NCBI RefSeq assembly: GCF_044324875.1
Contig: NZ_CP172185.1
Source: Escherichia coli
GTDB taxonomy: Bacteria; Pseudomonadota; Gammaproteobacteria; Enterobacterales; Enterobacteriaceae
Length of the DNA stretch: 64,000 nt
Reading direction: 5' to 3' (one strand)
Shown here in pieces: positions 646-7,005 of the stretch (positions are counted from its first letter, which is position 1; every line of letters starts with the position of its first letter). A model generated the notes under the pieces. The model was given only the letters and a program-made list of their open reading frames with translations. It did no database searches and was not told where the DNA came from. A program made the translations under genes and the position numbers.

Positions 646-687
646 TGAACCGCCCCGGGTTTCCTGGAGAGTGTTTTATCTGTGAAC

Positions 688-1578
688 TCAGGCTGCCAGA
701 TCATCGTTTCCGATGGAAGCATAATAAGATTTTTCTGCTTCTGCCGGTGGGATATGGCCCAGCCTTTCCAGCAATCGTCGATTGTTATACCAGTCCACCC
801 ACGTGAGTGTGGCCAGCTCCACTTCTGTCCGGTTTTTCCAGCTCTTACGGTGTATTACCTCCGCTTTGTAAAGGCCATTGATGCTCTCCGCCATCGCGTT
901 GTCATACGAGTCACCAGTACTTCCTGTTGATGCCAGTAATCCGGCTTCCTTAAGCCGCTGTGTGTAGGCCAGCGATACATACTGAGAACCTTTATCACTG
1001 TGATGGACTGTGCCGGACGGTCGACGGGCCCATAACGCCTGCTCCAGAGCATCCAGCACGAATGTCGTTTCCATAGACGATGAGACCCGCCACCCCACGA
1101 TGTATCCGGCAAACACATCAATGATGAACGCCACATAGACGACCCCCTCCCATGTGCTGACGTAAGTAAAATCAGCCACCCACAACTGGTCAGGACGTTC
1201 TGCCACAAACTGACGGTTTACGCGGTCGCCTGCGGCAACGGCTTTCCGGCTGACGGTAGTGCGGACCTTTTTACCCCGGAGAACACCGGCAAGTCCCATA
1301 ACCGCCATGAGGCGCGCCACTGTACATCTGGCTACCCTGATTCCTTCCCGTAACAACTGACGCCAGACTTTACGCACACCGTATACCTGATGATTCCCAT
1401 CGTATACGCGCAGTATCTCTTTCTTCAGCCAGTCATCGCGCTGCGCACGGGCACTGCGTTTATAAGGATGATGTCGCTGTTGCTGACAGTGGTAATACGT
1501 TGACGGGGCAATATGTAGTTCACTGCATACCGGTCCGACCCCGTACAGCTTACGCAGCTTATCCAGCAGTGGCATCAC
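688..1578 (-). CDS. IS629 transposase OrfB (DDE integrase domain)
   Basis: 296-aa ORF with IS3-family integrase core ([18 protein letters not shown]); 3 aa different from copies 2-4. Confidence 0.85.
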
Positions 1579-1901
1579 TTTTTCCAGAGGCGGTCGAACT
1601 CCGCCTTCGCAAAATAAGCGGAAGCCTGGCGAAGGATATCGTTACTGCGGCGCAGTTCACGATTTTCACGTTCCAGCTCTTTCAGACGCTGACGTTCAGC
1701 GGTGGTGAGCCCGCCATCACCGCCTCCGGTATCCCGCTCATGCTGGCGTACCCAGACACGCAGAGTCTCCGGTGTACAGCCAATCTTTGGGGCAATGGAA
1801 CAAATTGCCGCCCACTGTGAGTCATATTCGCCCTGACTTTCCAGAACCATACGAATCGCCCTCTGACGGACTTCGGGGGAAAAACGAGTATTTTTAGTCA
1901 T
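1575..1901 (-). CDS. IS629 transposase OrfA (helix-turn-helix / leucine-zipper part)
   Basis: 108-aa [22 protein letters not shown]..., overlaps orfB start as in IS3-family frameshift arrangement. Confidence 0.85.
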
Positions 1902-1955
1902 TCTGTTTACCTCTTTCTCAGGGAGTTTAGTCTCCAGGATTCCCGGGGCGGTTCA

Positions 1956-2336
1956 GTACGGCTTGGCGCGGATGGCATCATTGTCTCCAATCATGGCGGA
2001 CGTCAGCTTGATGGTGCCATCCCCACGGCCAGGGCATTACCGGCGATAGCAGATGCAGTGGGTGATGACATCACGGTACTGGCGGATTCAGGTATTCGTT
2101 CCGGTGTGGATGTGGTCCGGATGCTTGCTCTGGGGGCAAAAGGTGTGCTGCTGGGAAGAGCGTATATTTACGCACTTGCCGCTGCGGGAAAAAAAGGCGT
2201 TGAGCACCTGCTCAGACTTTATGCTGAAGATATGAAAGTCACCATGACGCTGATCGGCGCTTCTTCTCCCGCTGATATCAGCAGCAGAAATCTTGAATAT
2301 CTGGAAAAAGAATTCTCCCGACATTCATCATCCTGA
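1956..2336 (+). pseudogene. L-lactate dehydrogenase 3' part (resumes in frame after IS629)
   Basis: Translation from 1956 gives [20 protein letters not shown]...[19 protein letters not shown], the conserved C-terminal half of LldD-type enzymes; joins ..KNAV at 645 when IS and one GTAC copy are removed. Confidence 0.8.
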
Positions 2337-2412
2337 CCAAAGTAAACCAGGCACATATCCTCCATGCTCCCGGGACAACAGAGCGCAGTTCGGGCACTAC
2401 AGCCTTACTGGT

Positions 2413-2703
2413 TTACCAGTATGGTCTGCATTCAGAAGGGACCGACAACAACTCAGCCAGCTCCGCCACAAGGCGGTTGGTTTCCAGTAATTTCCGCAGA
2501 CTCACCGAAAAATAGCCTTGTGCCACATCGTGATTTTCACAGGCTTCCCTGCGCGTCAGCCCCAGAACAAAATAATCCCTCAGCGCCAGGATAACCTTTT
2601 TACTGTTAACGGGAGAAAGCGCTGCAAGTATTTCAAAATGTGCATCTGACATGCTTCCGGGCGTGTCATATATCCCGGCAACACGACTGTGATATATCCC
2701 CAC
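2413..2703 (-). CDS. PapB/FaeA-family small transcriptional regulator (fimbrial-operon regulator type)
   Basis: 96-aa ORF with GSMSDAHFEILAALSPVNSKKVILALRDY...REACENHDVAQGYFSVSLRKL, recalled PapB-family signature; long AT-rich region upstream (2704-3500). Confidence 0.55.
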   Translation of the reverse strand: MGIYHSRVAGIYDTPGSMSDAHFEILAALSPVNSKKVILALRDYFVLGLTRREACENHDVAQGYFSVSLRKLLETNRLVAELAELLSVPSECRPYW

Positions 2704-3268
2704 GGATACCCCCTGATTACCGCCTGCCCTTATTCCCCGGGAGACTGAGAACAGGCTGAGATATAAGTATATTTATATAATATTATATTTCGGATTATTC
2801 GCAGAATACTGAAAAAACCGGTCGGGTCAACCGCAGGAAAACAGAAAGAGCCTGTAATAACGCATAGAAACGATATTTAAAACCAGAACAACCATCAAAA
2901 ACAGAACATAAAGTCACAAAAACCGTCAAAAACGACCAGGTACTGCATTTTTAACACCTTTTTTAAATTTTGGTATCTTTACAAAAAACACCACCTGAAA
3001 ATCATTTATTTAATTAAATAAAGTAAATTGCTTAGCCTGATAAATATTGTTCTGCAACACTCCGGTTCAGGCAGAATGTATTTTCATGGCTTACCCATTC
3101 AGGCGTAAATGCGATATTCCGCACATGACAGAGACCACACAAAGAAAAACAGGCGCAGACAGCCGGATACAGGATAAATTAACACTTCACAATCCGGCAT
3201 TATTACGCTACAACATTCACGGGCAACTGCCCTTGTAACGAAAACTTCCTTAATTTGGGTATTTGTGT

Positions 3269-3298
3269 GCCGTACGTCTGTGGTGTACGGCTTTTTTT
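3269..3298 (+). terminator. Putative intrinsic terminator (GC stem GCCGTAC/GTACGGC followed by T7)
   Basis: gccgtac gtctgtggt gtacggc ttttttt read directly; the transcript it would end is not identified. Confidence 0.4.
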
Positions 3299-3584
3299 CA
3301 TTTTTTTATAATTTCTATAAATAAAGATATAATCAATACGTATATACCGTCGTATAAGATCCTTCTTCACCTTTCATTAAAAAGATCCGGAACAAAACAG
3401 ACGATGAGATTGTGGTACTACCAGATTTACACCCTTACTCCGGATAATTCACAAATCCTGAAATTACGACCTTCCTCCCGTTGCCGGACTGAAACAATAT
3501 GCAGACACTCTGACGGACATGTCAGCAATGCACTCGCTCTCTGCTGTACAGGTATTACACCATACTTCACCAGGAGGTCTGTTC

Positions 3585-5228
3585 ATGGATATCTGGTCAC
3601 AGGACTATGATCCCGTCGGAAATATCTGGCTGTCCAGCCTGACAGCATCGCTTCCCATTCTGTTTTTTTTCTTTGCCCTGATTAAGCTGAAGCTTAAAGG
3701 CCATGTTGCTGCCACATGGACTGTCATTATCGCGCTCATCGTGGCCCTTCTTTTTTATAAGATGCCTCTCACAGCCGCACTCGCTTCCGTGCTCTATGGT
3801 TTCTTCTATGGCCTGTGGCCCATTGCCTGGATAATTATTGCCGCAGTTTTTGTTTATAAAATTTCTGTAAAAACCGGACAGTTCGATATCATTCGCGCTT
3901 CAGTGCTGTCCGTTACGCCTGATCAGCGTATTCAGATGCTGATTGTGGGGTTTGCCTTTGGTGCCTTTCTCGAAGGGGCCGCCGGTTTTGGAGCACCTGT
4001 GGCCATAACAGCAGCACTGCTCGTGGTGCTTGGGTTCAGACCACTTTACGCGGCCGGGTTGTGTCTGATCGTCAATACAGCTCCCGTGGCCTTTGGTGCG
4101 ATGGGGATCCCCATTCTCGTCGCAGGCCAGGTTACCGGGCTGGACAGCTTTGAAATCGGTCAGATGGTTGGTCGTCAGTTACCCTTCCTGACCATTATTG
4201 TGTTGTTCTGGATCATGGCAATTATGGATGGCCTGCGTGGCATTAAGGAAACCTGGCCCGCCGTTCTGGTTGCCGGAGGTTCCTTCGCCATAGCCCAGTT
4301 TCTCAGTTCCAACTTTCTGGGCCCGGAGCTCCCGGACATCATATCATCACTGGTGTCGCTGGTTTGTCTGACGCTTTTCCTGAAACGCTGGCAGCCTGTA
4401 CATATTTTTCGCTTTGACAACACCCCGTACCAGAATACGGACTCATCACCACTGAGCCGTTCACAGGTGATACGGGCATGGTCGCCATTTCTGTTTCTGA
4501 CTGCCACGGTGACACTCTGGAGTCTTCCTCCCTTTAAAACACTGTTCGCACCGGGCGGTACACTGCATGACCTGGTGATTACTGTTCCTGTGCCGTATCT
4601 TGATAAACTCATTGCACGTATGCCTCCGGTAGTCAGCGAAGCCACTGCTTATGCCGCGGTGTTTAAGTTTGACTGGTTCTCTGCCACCGGTACCGCCATC
4701 CTGTTTGCAGCATTGCTCTCTGTGATCTGGCTGAAGATGAAACCGTCAGATGCTGTCAGCACCTTTGGCAGTACACTGAAAGAACTTGCCCTGCCCGTCT
4801 ATTCCATCGGCATGGTGCTGGCTTTCGCCTTTATCTCTAATTATTCGGGGCTTTCATCCACACTTGCCCTGGCTCTGGCACAGACAGGCAGCGCCTTTAC
4901 GTTCTTCTCACCGTTTCTGGGCTGGCTGGGCGTATTTCTGACGGGATCAGATACCTCATCCAATGCATTATTTGCATCACTCCAGGCAACGGCAGCTCAT
5001 CAGATCGGGGTCTCCGATATTCTGATGGTTGCCGCCAACACCACAGGGGGAGTAACCGGCAAAATGATTTCTCCACAGTCCATTGCCATCGCCTGCGCAG
5101 CAACCGGACTTGTTGGCAAAGAATCAGAACTCTTTCGTTTTACTGTTAAACACAGCCTGATCTTCACCTGTATTGTGGGAGTCATCACCTCTCTCCAGGC
5201 ATGGGTATTCACCTGGATGATCCCATGA
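3585..5228 (+). CDS. Lactate permease (LctP/LldP family)
   Basis: ORF 3519..5228; start placed at ATG 3585 preceded by AGGAGG; translation is close to E. coli LldP along its length (recalled, not aligned). Confidence 0.85.
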
Positions 5229-5403: not shown

Positions 5404-6696
5404 ATGGCACACCGCTACCTGACACGACAGGATCACAGGACCTTATCTCTGGCTGCGCTCGGAGGCGCACTTGAATTCTATGACTTCATCATTTTTGTTT
5501 TTTTCGCCGCCGTCATTGCTGAGCTCTTTTTCCCGCCGGATATACCGGAATGGCTCCGTCAGCTCCAGGCATTTGGTATATTTGCTGCCGGGTACCTGGC
5601 ACGACCTCTCGGCGGAATAATTCTGGCCCATTTTGGCGATATACTTGGGCGAAAGAAAATGTTCACCCTGAGTATTTTGCTTATGGCAGTACCGACACTT
5701 GTTATCGGTATTTTGCCAACCTACAGCTCTGTGGGTACCCTGGCTCCTGTGCTGCTTCTTCTGATGCGTCTGCTTCAGGGCGCAGCGATTGGCGGTGAAG
5801 TGCCCGGTGCCTGGGTTTTTGTTGCTGAGCATGTACCGGAGCGCCGAACCGGTATTGCATGCGGAACACTGACAGCAGGTTTAACCGCCGGGATCCTGCT
5901 TGGTTCAGTGGTTGCCACACTTGTCAATTCAGTATTGTCTCAGGATATTGTTTACGATTACGGCTGGCGATTCCCCTTCCTTCTTGGTGGTGTTTTTGGC
6001 CTGGCAGCAATGTACCTGCGCCGCTGGCTGGAGGAAACTCCGGTATTTCTGGAAATGAAAGCCAGAAAAAAACTGGCTCAGGAATTACCGGTAAAAGCTG
6101 TCGTTTTAAGACATAAAAAAGCTGTTGTGATTTCCATGCTGTTGACATGGCTGATATCCGCAGGGATTATTGTGGTGATACTGATGGCACCGGTCTGGTT
6201 ACAGAAACAGTATGACTTTTCGCCGACAGTCACCTTACAGGCTAACAGCATTGCAACTATTATGCTGAGTCTGGGATGCCTGCTGGCCGGTATGGCCATT
6301 GATTCTTTTGGTGCCGGAAAAACCTTTATATCAGGCAGTATTCTGCTTGGATGTTCAGGATGGCTGTTCTATCACACTGTCGGTGAGTATCCTGAAATGT
6401 TGTTCTGGCTGTATGGGCTGGCGGGATTCAGTGTGGGCATTGTCGGGGCCGTCCCTTATGTTCTCGTGCGTATTTTCCCCGCAGAGGTCAGGTTTACCGG
6501 CATTTCATTCTCTTACAATGTCGCTTATGCAGTGGTGGGGGGACTGACTCCTGTTGTGGTCACGATGTTAACGGAAATCTCCCCGATGGCTCCAGCATGG
6601 TATGTTATGCTGTTATCACTTGTGGGATCAGGACTGGGAATATGGTTCTGCAGGGATCCCCGTCTTTTTATCTGTCACGCAGACAAAGACAAATAA
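5404..6696 (+). CDS. MFS transporter, probably metabolite:H+ symporter family
   Basis: 430-aa hydrophobic ORF with GGALEFYDFIIFVFFA, GDILGRKK, FSYNVAYAVVGGLTP. Confidence 0.7.
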   Translation: MAHRYLTRQDHRTLSLAALGGALEFYDFIIFVFFAAVIAELFFPPDIPEWLRQLQAFGIFAAGYLARPLGGIILAHFGDILGRKKMFTLSILLMAVPTLVIGILPTYSSVGTLAPVLLLLMRLLQGAAIGGEVPGAWVFVAEHVPERRTGIACGTLTAGLTAGILLGSVVATLVNSVLSQDIVYDYGWRFPFLLGGVFGLAAMYLRRWLEETPVFLEMKARKKLAQELPVKAVVLRHKKAVVISMLLTWLISAGIIVVILMAPVWLQKQYDFSPTVTLQANSIATIMLSLGCLLAGMAIDSFGAGKTFISGSILLGCSGWLFYHTVGEYPEMLFWLYGLAGFSVGIVGAVPYVLVRIFPAEVRFTGISFSYNVAYAVVGGLTPVVVTMLTEISPMAPAWYVMLLSLVGSGLGIWFCRDPRLFICHADKDK

Positions 6697-7005
6697 TGTT
6701 TCACCGTTATATAACGGTATCATTCAGTTTTTAAAAATGGCGACAGGTTAACCTGTCGCCATCCGGTCAGATGCTCACCAGACCGCGCCCCCCATCAGTC
6801 TCCATATCCTCCCCCTTGCCCTGCCGGATGATAGCGCCACGCGACATCACCAGGTAGTGGTCCGCCGTCATGTTCCGGTGAAATCGTCCTGACACGTTTC
6901 CGGGCTCGTTATCAGCGGTTTTTGCGAATGATCGCCGCCCTGCGATGGTTGATTTATTTTATTGCGCCCCGGCGTCTGCCTTGCCAGGTACCGGAGGCGG
7001 GCTCT

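Follow-up and report, generated by a model that had tools for sequence, protein, structure and literature searches.

A stand-alone PapB/FocB-family regulator gene beside an AT-rich spacer in a serX island of Escherichia coli

A PapB/FocB-family gene without a fimbrial operon

The window, by which we mean the whole 64-kb stretch of E. coli DNA that was analysed, contains a papB-like gene. It lies between the lldD and lldP copies of a mosaic island, rich in insertion sequences, at tRNA-Ser (serX) (Table 1). Island lldD is split in this window by a 1310-bp IS3-family element. The papB-like ORF encodes 96 amino acids from a GTG at 2703; an alternative ATG at 2652 would give a protein of 79 amino acids. 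Between the regulator and lldP lies an AT-rich spacer, whose flanks have about 52% GC.

Table 1. Features of the papB-like locus, with coordinates in the window
Feature	Coordinates	Strand	Remarks
3' part of island lldD	1956..2336	+	Convergent with the papB-like gene, 76 bp from stop codon to stop codon
Stand-alone PapB/FocB-family regulator gene	2413..2703	-	Pfam, FocB match, AlphaFold2/Foldseek
Replaced 3' tail, ELLSVPSECRPYW and stop	2413..2453	-	Without the aromatic pair (FY/YY, then tail) of most family members
Core common to the papB-like gene and the second orphan copy	2454..2723	-	94.8% nucleotide identity; flanks unrelated on both sides
AT-rich spacer, papB-like gene to lldP	2704..3584		881 bp, 39% GC, minimum 32%
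Promoter-like site TTGACC-16-TATTCT	2803..2830	-	100-127 nt 5' of the GTG; predicted transcript start near 2796; consensus match only
Stretch weakly collinear with the regulatory DNA 5' of the group C fimbrial operons	2834..3034	-	nhmmer
T/G-rich stretch ending TAAATATCGT	2870..2924	-	Weak likeness to TAAAGATCGT, the proximal GATC box in switches with papI; no GATC of its own
Two overlapping promoter-like sites	2951..3005	+	Facing the terminator, away from the papB-like gene; consensus match only
26-nt block TAAGCAATTTACTTTATTTAATTAAA	3009..3034	-	24/26 in group C, 21/26 in group B
63-aa ORF	3047..3238	+	No Shine-Dalgarno sequence; probably not a gene
Intrinsic-terminator-like hairpin, then T7	3269..3298	+	10-bp stem, 6 G-C pairs, loop of 3
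Best promoter-like site of the spacer, TTTATA-17-TATAAT	3305..3333	+	10/12; candidate lldP promoter
GATC at 3358-3361 and at 3384-3387, with no others in the spacer	3358..3387		26 bp apart; not a pap-type pair
TGGTACTACCA palindrome, TGGT-N3-ACCA core	3413..3423		172 nt 5' of lldP
lldP of the island (L-lactate permease)	3585..5228	+	Divergent from the papB-like gene; RefSeq start 3585

The ORF scored 95.4 bits with the Pfam PapB family (PF03333), where the cut-off is 29.4, over positions 18-89 of the 91 in the profile (E 2.1e-27), its product matched the sequence of FocB (3m8j) at E 3.5e-14, and an identical gene is labelled in RefSeq as a 'PapB/FocB family fimbrial expression transcriptional regulator'. 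An AlphaFold2 model of the protein (pLDDT 87.5) has helices at residues 20-29, 35-45, 51-57 and 62-87, and its best Foldseek matches were FocB 3m8j A/B (E 2e-6, TM 0.71-0.81). The structured core, residues 15-87, is whole and was modelled at high confidence. Every family-invariant residue of the family alignment is retained. R51 and C55 align with R61 and C65 of PapB, two residues reported to be needed to bind DNA (PMC7734786), and among 37 family members C55 is invariant and R51 nearly so. At 50% identity the gene forms a cluster of its own. Together, the homology and the model place it in the PapB/FocB family of small helix-turn-helix regulators, with a predicted FocB-like, all-helical fold.

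The usual position of a family member is that of first gene in a chaperone-usher or other adhesin operon, and the papB-like gene does not occupy it. Pilins, chaperones and ushers of four related operons, used as tblastn queries on the window, gave no match at E < 0.04, and between tRNA-Ser gene and integrase no fimbrial gene is annotated in the near-identical serX island of strain GF4. The closest relatives with readable context (44-59% identity) all head chaperone-usher operons; these comprise groups A-C, P0007, P0009 and the GATC-pair loci, with P0008, the closest by identity, left out. The papB-like gene is truly an orphan, without a fimbrial operon. The original prediction had described the ORF as PapB-like, had stated that PapB-type regulators head fimbrial operons, and had noted no usher, chaperone or pilin gene nearby. 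The homology check, the Pfam and FocB matches and the predicted fold bear out the first of these claims, the second is true of all relatives with readable context (again leaving out P0008), and the third holds for the window and for the GF4 island.

The gene is present in 11 of 5426 complete E. coli genomes, its reading frame is intact in all 11, and the island is the same one in every carrier. Strains GF4, TUM1886 and MS 119-7 are among the carriers. When the regulator was used to look for a donor of the locus among 100,044 species representatives, nothing was matched; metagenomes were scanned for relatives with a 9-sequence family alignment.

The second orphan copy, the 3' end and selection

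A second orphan copy is located in a different E. coli island, where it adjoins a LysR regulator with CoA-transferase and 3-hydroxybutyrate genes. Fimbrial structural-gene remnants were sought by tblastn beside both orphan copies, and none were found. Homology between the two copies stops at codon 84 of the papB-like gene, after which comes a foreign tail of 13 codons. The aromatic FY/YY pair is retained in the second copy and absent from the gene here. Because the tail is replaced and the aromatic pair is missing relative to the second copy, we regard the 3' end as a deletion or recombination junction.

When codons 2-83 of the two orphan copies were compared (82 codons), seven synonymous and no non-synonymous differences were seen. 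With 60.7 synonymous (S) and 185.3 non-synonymous (N) sites, 11.5% of the synonymous sites differ, and the probability of this pattern by chance is about 5e-5. The papB-like gene of strain CM2 has one further synonymous SNP. Judged from this comparison, the gene was evidently under purifying selection in the past, not necessarily now, since the synonymous-only divergence may predate the loss of working fimbrial operons. The gene is probably functional. Disrupted forms also occur: one allele (P0003/L005) has an IS66-family insertion at the 5' end of the gene, IS903B is inserted 210 bp upstream of it in strain 673, and another allele (P0005) is scrambled. Given these disrupted alleles, loss of the papB-like gene is tolerated.

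The AT-rich spacer

Searches of E. coli genomes, of plasmids and of canonical lldP loci gave no DNA relative of the spacer apart from the island itself. A family of pap-like operons, headed by some of the closest relatives (55% protein identity), has a counterpart of its 26-nt block about 350 nt 5' of papB, and none of 100 shuffles equalled the match. A profile of the group C upstream region found its best match in the window at 3034-2834 (nhmmer E 0.025, top of 128 kb; 0 of 500 shuffles). Both the block and the collinear match lie on the same strand and at a similar distance as in the group C and B operons; the similarity is short and AT-rich, and shuffles break local composition and may overstate its significance. 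We take 2834-3034 as presumptively native papB upstream DNA. The spacer proves to be composite, with putative native papB DNA from 2704 to about 3054, a 250-bp segment at 3055-3300 that is closed by the strong intrinsic terminator-like hairpin, and, from 3300 to 3584, the promoter-like site, operator-like palindrome and leader of lldP. A long AT-rich upstream region is normal for the papB family and is no sign per se of a hidden element.

The two GATC sites of the spacer share one orientation, and no GATC occurs between 2256 and 3357. The genuine switches of relatives have GATC pairs 102-103 bp apart in conserved inverted boxes, and GATC-box weight matrices gave 7 bits or less here versus 19-36 bits at 18 real switches. 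Most GATC-pair loci with upstream DNA on the contig carry a papI-type gene; a tblastn search here for a papI/faeA remnant, with two PapI-type queries, gave as its top match 17 residues within the lldP leader (E 0.06). A pap-type GATC switch was rejected on GATC spacing, on box scores and on the missing papI, the likeness of TAAATATCGT being weak. The pap-type Dam switch is absent at this locus. Group B and C operons have no papI and no GATC pairs and, since the matching operon family lacks both, the relic in the spacer would not be that of a Dam switch.

The terminator-like hairpin itself occupies 3269-3291, and terminator features are present on the + strand only. By strict terminator criteria there are four such sites in the window, and they arise in two of 300 dinucleotide shuffles of the spacer. 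It is a strong, statistically unusual terminator-like hairpin, at which termination is predicted. The 63-aa ORF that precedes it belongs to no Pfam family and has no homologue among 5.8 billion proteins except itself; a small protein at 3047-3238 was rejected, as the ORF lacks a ribosome-binding site, a family and, beyond the locus, any homologue.

These results bear unequally on what had been predicted for the spacer. The AT-rich region of about 800 bp is real, as is the strong isolated terminator at 3269-3298, with no annotated gene 5' of the hairpin. The suggested check for paired GATC sites gave only those at 3358 and 3384, too close together and with no conserved boxes. Of the idea of a relic of a fimbrial switch region, a trace of pap-like upstream DNA survives and the Dam switch does not.

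The candidate lldP promoter, the best promoter-like site of the spacer, lies directly 3' of the terminator. Farther towards lldP is the palindrome, whose TGGT-N3-ACCA core we take to be of the LldR/PdhR operator type. The canonical lldP of other Enterobacteriaceae is at most 87% identical to island lldP, and canonical and island lldP genes share no upstream DNA beyond 17 nt. In a protein search, no intermediate relatives of island LldP were found but one 97% match on a short contig. Island LldP itself occurs on more than 1,000 contigs.

Interpretation and comparison with known systems

We consider it fairly probable that the papB-like gene encodes a stand-alone PapB/FocB regulator that came from a papI-less pap-like operon, is still active and acts in trans. 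Its origin is most likely a fimbrial operon. The ancestor would have been the first gene of a pap-like chaperone-usher operon, from a branch without papI and without the Dam GATC pair; the structural genes would then have been lost, with the 3' junction falling inside the papB-like gene at codon 84, and about 330-380 bp of native 5' regulatory DNA would have been carried along with it. The terminator would most plausibly stop transcripts leaving the papB regulatory region, or mark where a lost gene ended, before lldP is reached. By analogy, the protein most likely acts in trans on adhesin operons elsewhere, which we propose because PapB, TosR and the pMB2 paralogue act so. It would bind the AT-rich regulatory DNA of distant adhesin loci, such as the fim switch region and other pap-family operons, and this binding would shift the choice of adhesins made.

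A rather unlikely account, though one to be taken seriously, is that the gene is an inert leftover, a fragment stranded by operon deletion, undegraded and with no present function in an IS-eroded island. The foreign sequence fused from codon 84 would suit such a fragment, as would the IS insertions in or beside the gene in some strains, the scrambled allele, the splitting of the adjacent lldD and the rarity of the gene (11/5426 complete genomes). However, the frame is intact in all 11 of these genomes, no amino-acid change lies between the gene and the second copy despite divergence at 11.5% of synonymous sites, the whole core from residue 15 to 87 has been kept and is confidently modelled, and two independent orphan copies survive in different islands. 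We find it scarcely credible that the spacer holds a decayed pap-type Dam/Lrp switch, its GATCs mutated to TATC at 2872-2875 and GATA at 2974-2977. A profile of papI-containing switch regions does have its best match in the window at 2924-2870, where TAAATATCGT stands against TAAAGATCGT (nhmmer E 0.31 over the window and 0.002 for the spacer alone; equalled by one shuffle in 500; matrix 5.1 bits), and the GATA is exactly 102 bp from the TATC. Yet the candidate decayed boxes score 5-7 bits versus 19-36 for real ones and are equalled at unrelated places in the window, the GATA is wrongly oriented for an inverted distal box, and the promoter block conserved after the proximal box in real switches was not found here. 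A MAFFT alignment of the region differs from the alignment that this decay would need and is incompatible with it, tblastn found no papI remnant, and a Dam/Lrp switch was never part of groups B and C, which are among the nearest relatives by protein.

It is improbable that the spacer encodes a small RNA of about 290 nt, or a small protein, running from the promoter-like sites at 2951-3005 to 3298 in the place of papI. Those sites do face a strong and unusual terminator with no annotated gene between, and related operons have their divergent papI gene in the position of this unit. Against it, a search for Rfam 15 small RNAs at permissive thresholds gave at best 13-21 bits (E 7-9), far under gathering scores, so that the earlier small-RNA idea found no homologue; 3012-3300 folds unremarkably (z = -1.9), with the terminator hairpin lost from the minimum-energy fold at full length. 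The 63-aa ORF has neither ribosome-binding site nor family nor homologue, and no similarity to PapI was found. Related papI-less fimbrial operons lack a comparable promoter-terminator unit; a divergent promoter with terminator was looked for upstream of one of them (L144) and was not found. The segment is known in this island only, in nearly identical copies. Local recruitment of the regulator, which would bind the shared spacer and control the divergent lldP-MFS unit and possibly lldD, seems to us highly improbable. It would be in keeping with the divergence of lldP and the papB-like gene over one long AT-rich spacer, with an island lld module that has no lldR gene of its own, and with a second orphan copy that likewise adjoins a carbon-source module. 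However, the papB-lld linkage arose once and counts once, because all carriers have one and the same island, and no family member controlling a metabolic operon is reported in the literature searched, including a 2025 review. Moreover, lldP has its own promoter-like site and operator-like palindrome, cut off from the papB side by the terminator, and the pieces of the composite spacer are unrelated to each other. That the regulator and spacer (unit 2951-3298) form a new module coupling island L-lactate uptake to adhesin choice is likewise very hard to credit. The routes for such coupling would be the protein acting on the lldP promoter and on distant fimbrial switches, or a ~290-nt RNA replacing PapI.

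PapB-family proteins set which adhesins E. coli displays, with cross-talk between operons. If the papB-like gene is, as we favour, a regulator acting in trans, it belongs with stand-alone papB copies that are already known, and this locus is a modest further example. What it adds is a lineage on the chromosome, carried by islands; its two copies lie in separate islands and are free of amino-acid changes, and this suggests that fimbrial regulators are repeatedly retained after operon loss. Stand-alone copies on mobile DNA can reprogramme host adhesion with no fimbriae of their own, as shown by the pMB2 gene, and virulence-gene inventories limited to fimbrial structural genes would overlook such regulators.

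PapB, FocB and SfaB head the P, F1C and S fimbrial operons of E. coli. The papB-like protein resembles them in its PF03333 domain match, its predicted four-helix fold and its retained R61/C65 equivalents, and the locus in its AT-rich upstream DNA; identity is about 46% to a PapB-type sequence and 36-38% to FocB in structural alignment. Unlike those loci, this one has no downstream pilin, usher or chaperone genes, no divergent papI/sfaC and no GATC pair 102 bp apart, and the C-terminal tail of its protein is replaced from codon 84. Pap-type Dam/Lrp/PapI switches are found in the pap, sfa, daa, clp and fae regulatory regions, and the locus shares with them a PapB-family gene and a long AT-rich upstream region, whereas the inverted-box GATC pair and a papI homologue are missing here. 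The PapI-less pap-like operons of group C (plasmid p170Kb, NZ_CP102245) and group B (NZ_CM196107), at 55-59% identity, have in common with this locus the 26-nt block at a similar distance and the lack of papI and of a GATC pair. They have about 1-2 kb of non-coding upstream DNA and, unlike this locus, a full downstream set of pilin, usher, chaperone and tip-subunit genes.

TosR is a non-fimbrial PapB-family member that works outside chaperone-usher operons and cross-regulates other adhesins (PMC12388093). It heads the operon tosRCBDAEF of the UPEC tos non-fimbrial adhesin, whereas the papB-like gene has no linked adhesin gene. OrfG, the papB/pefB paralogue of pMB2, is common on IncF plasmids of ExPEC. 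It belongs to no adhesin cluster, its surroundings being low-GC DNA next to mobility genes, and it reduces fim-dependent autoaggregation (Monarrez and Okeke 2020, PMC7734786). At our comparator locus for it (L149), the pMB2-type paralogue is in low-GC non-coding DNA with nutrient-uptake and mobility genes on either side. Both OrfG and the gene here are stand-alone PapB-family genes on mobile DNA without an adhesin cluster, and the papB-like gene likewise lies in low-GC, mobile-element DNA with no adhesin genes linked. The two proteins are only 41.5% identical over 65 residues (18-82), and therefore the papB-like gene is a separate lineage and not an orthologue of the pMB2 gene. The latter is plasmid-borne and has experimental support; the papB-like gene is chromosomal, in the serX island, and is known from sequence. 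By its trans action on chromosomal fimbriae, the pMB2 paralogue would be the best functional analogue of the papB-like gene.

The papB-like gene and its surroundings

The original prediction of a PapB-type regulator is upheld by the Pfam match of the ORF, its match to FocB and its predicted fold. The ORF scores 95.4 bits against PF03333 (cut-off 29.4), and FocB (3m8j; E 3.5e-14) is its sole relative with a solved structure. An AlphaFold2 model built on an alignment of 37 family members has four helices and a pLDDT of 87.5, and compares with FocB at a TM of 0.71-0.81. Every family column that is invariant or nearly so is kept, among them R51 and C55, which align with PapB R61 and C65; the two PapB residues are essential for DNA binding as cited in PMC7734786. 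The PapB family is small: HMMER, run in full against 1.84 billion cluster representatives, gave 173 clusters at E < 1e-3. The present gene forms a separate 50%-identity cluster, the nearest other clusters being 51-57% identical.

The window belongs to a genomic island of E. coli. In strain GF4, the closest match to the window, this island is about 75 kb long, is bounded by tRNA-Ser (serX) and an integrase gene adjoining dgcT, and contains metabolic modules, a type I restriction system, an Ag43 pseudogene and many insertion sequences. Of 5426 complete E. coli genomes, only 11 have segment 2300-3600, in every case on the chromosome, in one shared context and at 99.8-100% identity. lldD is unbroken in all 11; its interruption is seen in the window. 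The island LldP is at most 87% identical to any canonical LldP, the lone intermediate being P0204, a 97% identical protein on a short Logan contig. Public assemblies contain its exact sequence on over 1,000 contigs, and the island module is thus much commoner in drafts than the 11 complete genomes suggest.

The gene had also been described as lacking fimbrial neighbours, and so it does: tblastn with the pilins, chaperones and ushers of four related operons found none in the window, and no fimbrial genes are annotated in the GF4 island from serX to the integrase. Nearly all close relatives with readable surroundings (a tally that leaves out P0008) head chaperone-usher operons. These include K88/CS31A-like operons with a daaA/faeB-type gene, those headed by P0007 and P0009, and two pap-like families seen first on metagenome contigs and later in E. 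coli records, namely group C, which includes plasmid p170Kb, and group B, a rare chromosomal operon. Upstream non-coding DNA of 1-2 kb is usual in papI-less pap-like operons and in the orphan of the type found on plasmid pMB2.

Features of the papB-like locus and of the second orphan copy
Feature	Position	Strand	Remarks
lldD, island copy	6-645 and 1956-2336	+	Split in the window by the IS3-family element
IS3-family element, 1310 bp	646-1955		orfA 1575-1901 (-), orfB 688-1578 (-); interrupts lldD
Spacer, lldD to papB-like gene			76 bp
papB-like ORF	2413-2703	-	
Spacer, papB-like gene to lldP			881 bp
Two promoter-like sites	2951-3005	+	Upstream of the terminator
Conserved 26-nt block, TAAGCAATTTACTTTATTTAATTAAA	3009-3034	-	24/26 against all group C, 21/26 against group B
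63-aa ORF	3047-3238		Upstream of the terminator
Best promoter-like site of the spacer	3305-3333		10/12 consensus positions; directly downstream of the terminator
Palindrome, TGGTACTACCA	3413-3423		Perfect TGGT-N3-ACCA, 172 nt upstream of island lldP
lldP	3585-5228	+	
MFS transporter gene	5404-6696	+	
Second orphan copy	L146 14696-15031 = NZ_AP045773.1 1792063-1792398		Strain 23CRST013

Upstream DNA and the question of a Dam switch

The classical switches of relatives have a spacer of 560-570 bp, a divergent papI/faeA gene and a pair of GATC sites with a separation of 102-103 bp. These sites lie upstream of the B gene, at distances of about 142 and 245 nt, inside strongly conserved inverted boxes, ACGATCTTTTTATCTG and TAAAGATCGTGAAATT. 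The DNA upstream of the present gene is AT-rich, as originally noted (39% GC across the spacer, minimum 32%). Paired pap-type GATC sites were not found there: GATC is absent from 2256-3357, and the spacer has just two, at 3358 and 3384, 26 bp apart, in equal orientation and directly downstream of the best lldP promoter-like site. Weight matrices for the two GATC boxes reached a maximum of 7 bits in the spacer, against 19-36 bits at real sites, and a papI remnant was looked for and not found. Since none of the defining features was found, the gene lies outside the Dam/Lrp/PapI switch class. Elsewhere in the window, the best match to the proximal GATC-box matrix, TGGTTAAAAAGGTAGTTAAATTAA at 21951-21974 (-), scores 17 bits and contains no GATC; the counterpart of this region in strain GF4 is an IS3-family fragment, and the match probably arose by chance.

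A decayed Dam switch was considered as well. Built from 18 real switch regions, a profile finds its best match in the window at 2924-2870; the match is on the correct strand and ends in TAAATATCGT, where real switches have TAAAGATCGT (E 0.31 for the window and 0.002 for the spacer; equalled in 1 of 500 shuffles). Most of this match is low-complexity sequence rich in T and G, MAFFT yields a different alignment of the region, and the match is not followed by the conserved promoter block seen after real proximal boxes. Therefore, and given the low box scores and the lack of a papI remnant, we regard a decayed switch as unsupported.

The earlier suggestion of a relic of a fimbrial switch region stands in part: the GATC switch is not there, and a trace of native regulatory DNA is. 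The 26-nt block sits on the papB-gene strand in every case, about 350 nt upstream of the ATG in groups C and B and 382 nt upstream of the alternative ATG at 2652 here, and was absent from every window shuffle. Across the 64 kb, a profile of group C upstream regions matches best at 3034-2834 (E 0.025), with a score that was not equalled in any of 500 shuffles. Both papI and a GATC pair are missing from groups B and C. Together these observations suggest that some 330-380 bp of the DNA upstream of the present gene is native and stems from a papI-less lineage, in which case the missing Dam switch would seem to be ancestral rather than a product of decay. In the sampled PapB family (loci L097-L145, from metagenome and E. 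coli records), a papI-type gene was seen only in operons that have two GATCs at a spacing of 102-103 bp, and most such operons with enough upstream DNA on the contig carry one, the exceptions being L125 and L139. The P0007 type and locus L136 join groups B and C in having neither, so a sizeable part of the family is probably not Dam phase-variable.

The predicted terminator and the lldP side of the spacer

The strong terminator of the original prediction was recovered as a hairpin at 3269-3291 followed by T7, on the + strand only, and is a textbook intrinsic terminator as far as prediction goes. It is one of four sites in the 64 kb under strict criteria, and such a terminator arose in 2 of 300 spacer shuffles. 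The other three hairpins, at 52682-52707 (+), 52862-52889 (+) and 54179-54205 (-), group just past the integrase end of the island. For the 63-aa ORF we found no ribosome-binding site, Pfam family or homologue beyond the locus. An Rfam search for homologues of the small RNA once proposed here gave no match, and the folding of 3012-3300 is unremarkable; a small transcript from the spacer, with promoter-like sites ahead of the terminator, has a low probability.

On the lldP side, the palindrome carries the TGGT-N3-ACCA core of LldR/PdhR-type operators. The 64 kb contain just two such cores, and among 80 canonical lldP upstream regions 14 have one at -213, -172 or -87; core-genome LldR or PdhR may thus control island lldP. 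No DNA relatives of the spacer were found in E. coli genomes, plasmids or canonical lldP loci, and all of its copies are nearly identical. We interpret the spacer as a three-part composite, in which native papB upstream DNA reaches to about 3054, a segment of 250 bp follows and ends in the terminator, and the control region of lldP makes up the rest. The terminator would probably shield lldP from papB-side transcription, or else mark the end of a lost gene.

A second orphan copy, selection and known paralogues

A second orphan copy is carried by metagenome contig L096 and by one complete genome, that of E. coli 23CRST013, which also has the serX island. The island of this copy is a distinct one adjoining glnH/dps, with a LysR regulator, CoA-transferase and 3-hydroxybutyrate genes on one side of the gene, yebF and outer-membrane-protein genes on the other, and no fimbrial genes within 14 kb. 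Homology between the copies covers 2454-2723 only (94.8% identity), from 20 nt upstream of the start codon to codon 84, and the flanks are unrelated. The second copy keeps the aromatic FY/YY pair that most family members have near the C-terminus; the window copy ends in ELLSVPSECRPYW in place of that region, which marks its 3' end as a fusion junction, and the structured core of the AlphaFold2 model is unaffected. An 88-nt sequence, 90% identical, lies downstream of the MFS gene (6870-6957) and about 280 bp downstream of the second copy (L146 15309-15396), and may be a mobile-element fragment near both.

The main rival to a functional regulator is that the gene is an inert relic, a reading that draws on the existence of disrupted alleles: in L005, a GCA_048122955.1 contig, an IS66-family insertion at the gene's 5' end yields a fused protein, P0003, strain 673 (L148) has IS903B at about 2917-2925, between the gene and the 26-nt block, and a further allele is scrambled. 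We consider a relic the less likely reading. Codons 2-83 of the two orphan copies differ by seven synonymous and no non-synonymous changes. Under neutrality, and given 60.7 synonymous and 185.3 non-synonymous sites, the chance of this split is about 5e-5, and the single coding SNP of strain CM2 is also silent. These differences argue for purifying selection on the protein, although that selection may pre-date operon loss.

We believe that the gene most likely encodes a trans-acting adhesin regulator, a function that we hold to be somewhat better than an even bet by analogy with known proteins. Stand-alone PapB paralogues have already been described (PMC7734786), so that the present gene adds a new lineage to a known kind. 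The papB/pefB-like gene of pMB2, which is 41.5% identical to the present gene, lies outside adhesin clusters in low-GC DNA between mobility genes. ExPEC plasmids commonly carry it, and it lowers fim-dependent autoaggregation (PMC7734786); we found its lineage on many IncF plasmids. TosR is a PapB family member that acts outside chaperone-usher operons (PMC12388093).
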